Of a DNA stretch of 64,000 bases, positions 24,659-51,842 are shown in pieces. Source of the DNA: Thermoplasmata archaeon. Lineage in GTDB: Archaea; Thermoplasmatota; Thermoplasmata; GCA-020350865. The notes under the pieces are model-generated. The model had not been told where the DNA came from. It did not search any database and saw only the letters and a program-made list of their open reading frames with translations. The stretch is taken from contig CP070751.1 in assembly GCA_020348445.1 (NCBI GenBank), forward strand, positions 343,772 through 407,771, read 5' to 3'. Both the position numbers and the translations under genes were made by a program. Each line of letters opens with the position of its first letter. Positions within the stretch are counted from its first letter, which is position 1.

Positions 24659-24680
24659 GCGACTGAGAGAAACCTATTTA

Positions 24681-24688
24681 TTTAAAAA
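24681..24688 (+). promoter_or_regulatory. Probable TATA box for the repeat-array/tRNA-Ala transcript
   Basis: TTTAAAAA lies ~25 nt upstream of the first GGGCCGG unit (24713). No suitably spaced TATA was seen directly before the tRNA itself; AATATAAA at 24913-24920 is only ~9 nt away. Confidence 0.5.
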
Positions 24689-24710
24689 GCCCATTGCCAT
24701 ACTTCACTAT

Positions 24711-24928
24711 ATGGGCCGGTAGATATTCGTGGGGGCTTCGTTCCCACTATATCTCCCGCTCATATCACTTGCTTCACTTGTGTGGGCCGGTAGATATTCG
24801 TGGTGGTTTCTCCCCCCACTTACTCTACAGAAATACCCATTCGCATTAACTTTGTGGGCCGGTAGACTCCGTGGCAAGCAAGTTGCCACTCACTCTCCCG
24901 ACCCTCAACTGCAATATAAAATCAATAC
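24711..24928 (+). repeat. Three degenerate ~72-nt tandem units, each starting with a copy of the tRNA-Ala 5' end and containing a 7-bp GTGG..CCAC hairpin
   Basis: GGGCCGGTAGA starts at 24713, 24784 and 24856, and the tRNA at 24929 (spacing 71/72/73). Confidence 0.88.
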
Positions 24929-25001
24929 GGGCCGGTAGATCAGTTGGAAGATCGCAGGCTTTGCAAGCCTGAGGCCACGGGTTCAAATCCCGTCCGGTCC
25001 A
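24929..25001 (+). tRNA. tRNA-Ala (anticodon TGC), 73 nt, CCA not encoded
   Basis: Cloverleaf GGGCCGG/CCGGTCC with G3:U70 and discriminator A. D-stem GATC/GATC. Anticodon arm CAGGC-TTTGCAA-GCCTG. T-arm ACGGG-TTCAAAT-CCCGT. Confidence 0.97.
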
Positions 25002-25197
25002 CTCTAATTTTTATATAATTGTATCTGTGGACCGGACTTTATGTTCGAGTTATAATTGAACATCAATTAGGTCTTAAGCTCGAACATCCCGTCCGGTCCA
25101 CTTTAATTTTTAAATAATTATATCCGTGGACCGGACTCGTGTTTGAGTTATAATTGAATTTAAATTGTTTCTTAAGCTCAAACACCCATCCGGTCCA
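24989..25197 (+). repeat. Two ~98-nt tandem units plus a partial third, each starting with the tRNA-Ala 3' end and containing two hairpins
   Basis: CCCGTCCGGTCCAC at 24989 and 25088, CCCATCCGGTCCA at 25185. Inverted copy GTGGACCGGAC at 25027 and 25126. Confidence 0.9.
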
Positions 25198-25279
25198 TTT
25201 GTTATTACCTTGACATGAAAATTCATTCGACATCAATATATACCCCGGTTGCATACAGGGGCAATGGGGGGACCTTACT

Positions 25280-51482: not shown

Positions 51483-51842
51483 TACTTTGCATAATTATTT
51501 TCTATTTAATAAACTCTTGCTTTTGTTAATGGTAATATTGTTCCCTCCTCTCTTGCCCTTCCTTTTTTACCCCCACCTCCCTTATCCCCTCCTCCCTTAC
51601 CCCCTCCATCGTGGCCTCTTCCATTTTCTAAATGGTATATTCATAGTCCACTTTGCCCTTAGGTTATGCGATAAAGTGTCGATATCTTAAGCCTAAGGGC
51701 TCCCACCCAAAAATATGTCAGATTAAGATGTTTACTAAAAGAATATTCATTCATTATCGCCAAATTTATATTTTATAACCGCATAACCAGAAATTAGCAT
51801 CAGAAGGAAAGGAATTTACAAAACAACAAAAGGAGATTCTCG

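Follow-up and report, generated by a model that had tools for sequence, protein, structure and literature searches.

Direct and inverted copies of local tRNA ends frame small gene-less hairpin modules in an archaeal genus

tRNA genes are classical landing sites of mobile DNA. To our knowledge, the elements that target them need an integrase and carry a fixed copy of one tRNA end. Casposons in Thermoplasmata and Methanosarcina insert at tRNA 3′ ends and duplicate about 14 bp of the gene end. Other systems recognize their sites through folded DNA: in CTXphi and other Xer-exploiting elements (IMEX), two inverted copies fold into an attP hairpin that mimics the duplex target; in IS608, a short guide on the immediate 5′ side of a hairpin foot pairs with a target a fixed distance upstream, and insertion occurs 3′ of that target in single-stranded DNA; and in integron attC sites, including those of archaeal integrons, the recombination site is set by the fold rather than by the sequence. 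Behind Escherichia coli tyrT, finally, lie 178-bp repeats, each with the tRNA 3′ end. We know of no transposon or integrative element for which site-specific insertion is templated by the target itself. Here we describe a locus that shares some features with each of these systems and differs from each in others.

Architecture of the tRNA-Ala locus

The window, a 64,000-nucleotide stretch of DNA from a Thermoplasmata archaeon, is part of a MAG (G000) of 5.16 Mb that is about 82% complete and has many contigs joined by runs of N. On its forward strand, to which all positions in this section refer, lies a tRNA-Ala(UGC) gene with G3:U70 (24929–25002; identified by ARAGORN and by Rfam RF00005 at 71.4 bits), followed by two tandem units, A and B, that we delineated by repeat search. 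The source of the unit copies is the final 14 nt of the tRNA, CCCGTCCGGTCCAC (24989–25002), hereafter X. Unit A continues with a 24-nt AT-rich spacer, S (25003–25026), that contains a TATA-like TTTATATAA and a T5 run (25008–25012), and then with X′ (25027–25037), GTGGACCGGAC, the exact reverse complement of tRNA positions 64–74; S thus forms the loop of an X-S-X′ hairpin, and spacers of its type are seen again behind other tRNAs. A second, core hairpin follows (25041–25087), with a 9-bp stem ATGTTCGAG/CTCGAACAT (arms 25041–25049 and 25079–25087), a 29-nt loop TTATA...TCTTAAG and unpaired linkers, TTT and CCC, on either side. An exact 14-nt direct copy of the tRNA end (25088–25101) both closes unit A and opens unit B, which repeats the plan: a spacer (25102–25125) with a T5 run at 25107–25111, the exact inverted 11-mer GTGGACCGGAC (25126–25136) and a core hairpin (25139–25185) with stem GTGTTTGAG/CTCAAACAC (arms 25139–25147 and 25177–25185) and linkers TC and CC. 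All parts described in the initial annotation, namely the tRNA-end copy, the 11-nt inverted copy 24 nt on and the second stem, were recovered; absent from it was an outermost, degenerate direct copy, CCCATCCGGTCCAT (25185–25198), which differs from the tRNA end at two positions and adjoins the native flank.

In both units X′ starts 24 nt past its direct copy, and the unit period is 99 nt, then 97–98 nt. Units A and B are 92% identical over X-S-X′ and 81% identical over the hairpin part, with 83% identity between their spacers, and their core stems differ by two double, compensatory changes. Tandem Repeats Finder reported no repeat at this locus, the array being recovered by a separate repeat search, and there is no cassette open reading frame between the units. 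The two-unit array recurs without differences in contigs from two sediment samples of one study, one of which may be the source of the assembly.

Chance does not account for the inverted copies: GTGGACCGGAC and its reverse complement each occur twice in the 5.16-Mb assembly, against an expectation of 0.44 per strand, and all four occurrences are at the Ala locus. The G3:U70 pair also distinguishes the two strands of the acceptor stem, and since X′ reads GGACCGG rather than the GGGCCGG of the 5′ strand, it is a flipped copy of the tRNA 3′ strand; an origin from the 5′ strand is thereby ruled out. We likewise rejected X′ as a primer-binding site for mature, CCA-ended tRNA, as it complements gene base 74 (a T in the related genome G004) and not CCA.

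The likeness to tyrT drawn in the initial annotation extends to the tandem arrangement behind a tRNA gene with the 3′ end repeated in each unit, and no further. tyrT is one locus whose units lack an inverted copy and share no hairpin family with other tRNAs, whereas the modules described here occur genome-wide and on both sides of tRNA genes; the tyrT units are co-transcribed with the tRNA, which the T5 run at 25008–25012 makes unlikely here. Direct repeats of the tRNA 3′ end at 24989, 25088 and 25185 flank the inserts as attL and attR flank tRNA-targeting integrative elements, yet the 84-nt insert has no integrase gene, and the suggestion that the 14-nt core might serve as an attL/attR-like site elsewhere found no counterpart, there being no distant second copy in the genome. 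Unlike casposons, the modules have no terminal inverted repeats. Nor are the units the ends of a known MITE, a possibility raised earlier: in place of conserved terminal inverted repeats they have arms that vary and covary between copies, and it is the loop that is conserved.

A mirror-image arrangement precedes the gene. Repeat search and a five-genome comparison delineated three upstream modules of about 72 nt each (24713–24928), built on a different core family, in the order direct copy of the tRNA's first 11–14 nt (beginning at 24713, 24784 and 24856), hairpin, imperfect inverted copy and 24-nt spacer; opposite base 4, the inverted copies always show a C-C or C-A mismatch. All five genomes have a conserved promoter-like motif, AAACCTATTTATTTAAAA (24672–24688 in the window), about 28 nt ahead of the outermost copy however many units are present, which places the upstream modules inside the transcribed leader. 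They must therefore be transcribed, most likely unlike the downstream modules, though the design is identical. Contigs in two sediment samples join 24698 to 24856 through 13 other letters (depth 4–6); this junction belongs to a relative in the same samples that has one upstream unit where the window has three, an arrangement also found in the related genome G002.

A module family at tRNA genes

We wondered how far this design extends, and parsed all tRNA loci in five MAGs (G000–G004) of one Methanomassiliicoccales-related genus of uncultured sediment archaea. They contain 53 S-X′-core-X modules, at 46 of 145 tRNA genes (about a third); in G000, these include genes for Ala-CGC, Pro, Leu, Ile, Glu, Gly, Gln and other tRNAs. 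A spacer with a consensus near CTCTAATTTTTATATAATTATATTC and the loop TTAT...TCTTAAG are common to the modules, while X′ and X match the local tRNA. The extent of X′ is constant across tRNAs, covering positions 64–74 (the ten terminal bases and base 74), with an inner edge that is sharp in 25 of 31 cases; it lies 2–3 nt from the hairpin foot, with X a fixed 24 nt upstream. The direct copy spans the final 13–15 nt of the tRNA, and in 22 of 45 modules its left edge is the start of the T-stem 3′ strand. The core is consistently flanked by linkers that do not complement each other (TTT or TC on one side, CCC or CC on the other), and some module copies are flipped relative to their tRNA.

The copies follow the gene they accompany. 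Among related tRNAs with one or two base differences, the variant present in X′ was that of the adjacent tRNA in 46 of 53 comparisons, and the variant in the direct copy likewise in 44 of 50, these comparisons being non-independent. In the tRNA-Gly(GCC) array, every direct and inverted copy has T in G000 and G in the orthologous array of G001, and the module loop is inverted between the two genomes. The G000 gene (C1:4420118–4420228 plus flank; compare L038 in G001) has T67 where its relatives have G, resulting in a U6-U67 mismatch in the acceptor stem, and all four direct and inverted copies near it have the T. Gene end and copies thus appear to be homogenized even at a cost to the tRNA.

Two simpler descriptions of the module were tried and set aside. 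It is not a hollowed-out duplicate tRNA gene: module length stays at about 75 nt for short and long tRNAs alike, and upstream modules of tRNA-Gln complement base −1, not the 3′ strand. An apparent better preservation of X′ than of the outer direct copy among 12 modules was gone with 53. An unusually large share of tRNA genes in the whole genus have long introns at the canonical position (genes of 95–162 nt); these introns showed no similarity to the flanking modules.

Other small elements share the neighbourhood of tRNA genes. At least four further gene-less families (~95, 110 and 220–290 nt) lie behind tRNA genes and terminate in a repeat of the tRNA sequence from the T-loop to its end; two of these families also have a tailored inverted copy, which corresponds to the T-stem region instead of the acceptor strand (examples in G000 at C1:4743739, Thr; 5100033, Gly; 5034555, Thr; and 154342, Glu; and L099, Ala, in G002). 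One member of the present family lies away from tRNAs within the window, at 51641–51714 (+), with stem GCCCTTAGG/CCTAAGGGC and loop TTATG...TCTTAAG. It belongs to a seven-copy element of ~115 nt (CCCCCTCCATCGTGGCC ... TCCCACCC) dispersed in unrelated contexts of G000, whose first hairpin is made from its own sequence (GTGGCC/GGCCAC) and not from a tRNA end. About 20 tRNA genes of atypical sequence, densely clustered at G000:C1:4640571–4643566, have no modules at all and look like foreign DNA, of virus or plasmid type, binned with G000.

Comparison with related genomes had been proposed as a way to refute the functional reading of the units, should they not be conserved; at the Ala locus the five congeneric genomes have 2, 1, 1, 0 and 0 downstream modules. 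G000 has the two described above and no other content; G001 has one, together with an unrelated ~170-nt element that also ends in a copy of X; G004 has one and nothing else; G002 has none, carrying two elements of other families that each end in a 17–19-nt copy of the tRNA end; and G003 has neither modules nor other content. As the G003 and G004 flanks align past the outer X, the difference between these two loci is exactly S-X′-core-X, an empty and a filled site. Precise deletion between direct copies would look identical and could equally explain the empty sites, so that gain of an element there is not proven. Numbers of direct copies on both sides of tRNAs vary freely among the five species, and elements of other families are inserted at the tRNA-proximal or the outer copy, depending on the lineage. 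In three genomes a further hairpin of ~75 nt (GGATGAAAGG ... CCTTTCATCC) sits exactly between X′ and the core (L033, G001:C1:1164802–1164966; L051, G003:C197; and G000:C1:151190–151330), which suggests that the hairpin feet are themselves insertion points.

Relatedness among cores is mixed. Core B is 87% identical to cores behind tRNA-Glu genes and 79% identical to core A, while core A shares 94% identity with the core of a different tRNA's module in G001, more than with its own positional orthologues (83% and 80%); over the 47 nt compared, this is suggestive of unit B not being a recent duplicate of unit A. Across all modules, core similarity averages 0.74 for pairs at the same tRNA and 0.66 for others (permutation p < 0.0005), although only 15 of 43 modules have their nearest neighbour at the same tRNA. 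Because same-tRNA cores are more alike on average, much of the family evolves in place, with some exchange; these core similarities do not show recent jumping between tRNAs.

Beyond the genus, a covariance model of the core hairpin searched against 121 genomes of the class returned 28–40 matches in each of the five genus genomes and weak matches in four of six genomes of a second genus, which inspection confirmed as real. In that second genus (L134–L137; G088, G110, G071 and G012) the same core loop stands behind one intron-bearing tRNA with the 3′ end CCGCCTCAGCCCA, in a unit of ~190 nt that comprises a 24–25-nt spacer, a partly complementary X′ with a 3-nt internal mismatch to the tRNA end, the core loop, two more hairpins and a direct tRNA-end copy; in one of the genomes the unit occurs in tandem. 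When 185,579 species representatives were scanned for the exact pattern, 32 matches emerged, 26 of them in the four other MAGs of the first genus (titled Methanomassiliicoccales or Thermoplasmata archaeon); we take the six single bacterial matches to be chance, and nothing convincing was found in that set outside both genera. Viral contigs gave one chance match, inside a phage gene. The family is thus apparently restricted to a lineage and apparently undescribed, a full-text literature search having found no description of these modules.

DNA features or RNA features

The paired elements could act as DNA or as RNA. The initial annotation took the compensatory stem changes to indicate selection on structure and proposed that the first hairpin of unit A, by using the acceptor 3′ strand of the tRNA, competes with cloverleaf folding in the precursor. 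An RNA reading of this kind would have the units transcribed, by read-through or from the TATA-like box of the spacer, and acting in either of two ways: as a trailer they would keep the acceptor 3′ strand sequestered, or they would mimic tRNA minihelices and present an acceptor-like X′/X end to RNase P, RNase Z or the CCA-adding enzyme. We judge it unlikely, although several observations are in its favour.

The competition is sound thermodynamically: a read-through transcript extending to 25037 is predicted to fold with the inverted copy paired to the acceptor 3′ strand, the 11-bp hairpin taking the place of the acceptor stem, as the earlier proposal foresaw. The two-unit stretch folds far better than shuffled sequences (z = −9.9), the borders of the copies match the ends of the mature tRNA plus 1 nt, pairing is retained despite ~28% divergence of the loops, and the upstream modules lie inside the predicted leader transcript. 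The stem changes too are real, both between units A and B and family-wide, where eight of nine stem pairs show double changes (covariation score 0.53, against 0.20 in shuffles).

Transcription, however, probably stops short of the pairing partner. T runs of four or more occur in 44 of 56 tRNA-proximal downstream spacers, between X and X′, and T5 runs reach 15 per kb in downstream spacers against 1.2 per kb in modules upstream of tRNAs. Oligo-T termination is established in archaea, and with a T5 run between its X and X′ the tRNA-Ala transcript most likely ends before X′; the proposed competition would thus be forestalled by this probable terminator between the two arms.

The covariation, for its part, is explained as well by arm-to-arm correction in a DNA palindrome as by selection on RNA, since the changes run almost entirely from one Watson–Crick pair to another with hardly any G-U intermediates and loops are found inverted; the functional reading built on them is therefore not supported. 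The loop flips, seen in some copies and between orthologues, are of the kind expected from recombination between inverted DNA arms, and would scramble a sequence-specific RNA loop. The sense strand shows no G-U excess: its mismatches comprise 11 GT/TG and 27 AC/CA (p = 0.014, under a selection rule symmetric for GT and AC and with non-independent copies), a bias opposite to that expected of a sense RNA helix under selection and too weak to name the folding strand. Folding itself fails to discriminate, as the DNA strand beats shuffles equally well. In Rfam 15 the tRNA alone matched, a sub-threshold permuted tmRNA match of 24.9 bits consisting of the T-arm plus hairpin. Copy number varies, down to zero at the same tRNA in sister species. 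G3:U70 is the identity element for AlaRS, and as the perfect complement removes it, an Ala minihelix would not be charged. Taken together, the pairings are most likely features of DNA and not of the pre-tRNA: selfish or by-product DNA rather than a device for pre-tRNA processing.

A proposed fold-back insertion and its alternatives

We consider it moderately probable that units A and B are separate members of a family of small (~98 nt) non-coding fold-back DNA elements that insert at tRNA gene ends. Placed after a copy of the final 13–14 nt of a tRNA gene, each element would bring a spacer, then the tRNA end in flipped form (11 nt), then the core hairpin, and would close with a new direct copy of that end; every insertion would duplicate the tRNA end, each copy would be a new target, and arrays would follow. 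Complementarity of the arms would be kept by copying between them, through template switching or gene conversion in the palindrome. Gene conversion among X, X′ and the outer X may maintain the copies, which fits the Gly example; it would account for their upkeep and not for how an element first comes by the inverted and direct copies of a new tRNA end.

The most likely mechanism, by analogy with known systems, is movement or recombination as a folded single strand. Such a strand would fold into a dumbbell with the 11-bp X/X′ duplex at its centre as a mimic of the target: if S-X′-core-X were a single-stranded circle, its X/X′ stem would replicate the target duplex, and joining at X would give the observed order. 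Insertion would take place 3′ of an arm of the acceptor stem, on either DNA strand. Modules of the same logic on the opposite strand do stand in front of tRNA genes; they are the only ones able to be co-transcribed, and they are poor in T-runs.

This design resembles that of the folded attP of CTXphi and IMEX, which after integration would likewise leave target, loop, inverted copy, body and target in that order; the modules differ in lying at the adjacent tRNA end and not at dif, in being gene-less and 98 nt long and in having many targets per family, and a PF00589 search found no Xer-type recombinase. It also resembles the ends of IS200/IS605 elements, the PATEs derived from them without genes and the REP/BIME–RAYT systems, which are small non-coding hairpins, with X′ placed 2–3 nt from the foot and X 24 nt upstream as guide and target would be; the pairing in the modules is of 11 nt and not 4, each module ends in a copy of its target, and the hairpins of Y1 transposase genes in these genomes are unrelated. 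Both resemblances are of design only. Like integron attC sites, the modules have variable complementary arms, unpaired bases in the stem and arrays beside an attachment point, yet they have no RYYYAAC or GTTRRRY cores, cassette genes or IntI, and the ends of their arms are the locus-specific X′ and X.

No transposase or recombinase could be linked to the modules. All five genomes have Y1 transposase genes, whose ends bear unrelated GC-rich hairpins without the TTAT...TCTTAAG loop, and none of these genes has a module nearby. For tyrosine integrases (PF00589), G000, 82% complete, gave two weak partial matches only, beside bacterial-type tRNAs on other, probably foreign contigs; Cas1 (PF01867) was absent from all five genomes (80–91% complete), which also sets the modules apart from casposons. 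A reverse transcriptase is present in two of the five. No excised form was seen.

A more specific version of the fold-back reading, possible rather than probable in our judgement, is that the elements tailor themselves. Acting on single-stranded DNA of either strand, the hairpins would recognize the acceptor-stem base of any tRNA gene and, during insertion, copy the adjacent 11–14 nt in both orientations, so that each new copy would be equipped with a guide to its own target and with a spare of it.

That no mobile element exists at all seems to us rather improbable. On such an account the modules are by-products of replication and repair at heavily transcribed tRNA genes, arising by local duplication and snap-back or template-switch synthesis, homogenized by quasi-palindrome correction and sharing spacers and loops through ectopic gene conversion. 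It draws strength from the copies, including inverted ones, that track species-specific tRNA variants, for which templated copying is required; from the purely Watson–Crick stems and the loop inversions; from the symmetry of the pattern on both DNA strands; and from enzyme searches that came up empty. It sits poorly with the 29-nt loop and the spacer, which are unrelated to tRNAs and must have spread between loci, with the non-complementary linkers beside the core, which argue against snap-back copying of a whole arm, and with the seven-copy subfamily away from tRNAs, which occurs in unrelated contexts like a dispersing element.

Most doubtful is that the units are integration scars, left by a plasmid or virus whose integrase acted at the tRNA 3′ part to form attL and attR, followed by internal deletion to ~85 nt and, as for the E. 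coli tyrT repeats, unequal crossing-over: the direct tRNA-end repeats flanking each insert do start at the T-stem/T-loop border, the classical crossover region of tRNA att sites, and a tRNA-end copy also closes several of the other small families found behind tRNAs, yet random deletion would not leave an 85-nt remainder with a tailored inverted copy at a fixed 24 nt at dozens of tRNAs, and the account is further opposed by the want of an integrase beyond the two weak matches elsewhere, by a 14-nt core with no distant second copy, by a unit B that seems to be no recent copy of unit A and by mirror-image 5′-end modules that misfit 3′-end att sites.

What sets these archaea apart is that several unrelated gene-less hairpin cores are wrapped in direct and flipped copies of the local tRNA end, on both sides of the gene, and track changes in the tRNA. 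If the underlying mechanism reads or copies its target, it would be a new route to programmable site-specific insertion and could bear on the origin of guide-dependent transposons. If palindrome dynamics alone are at work, the family would still be a striking example from nature of a gene end evolving in concert with the inverted copies beside it, and a warning that compensatory changes in a stem need not mean a functional RNA.
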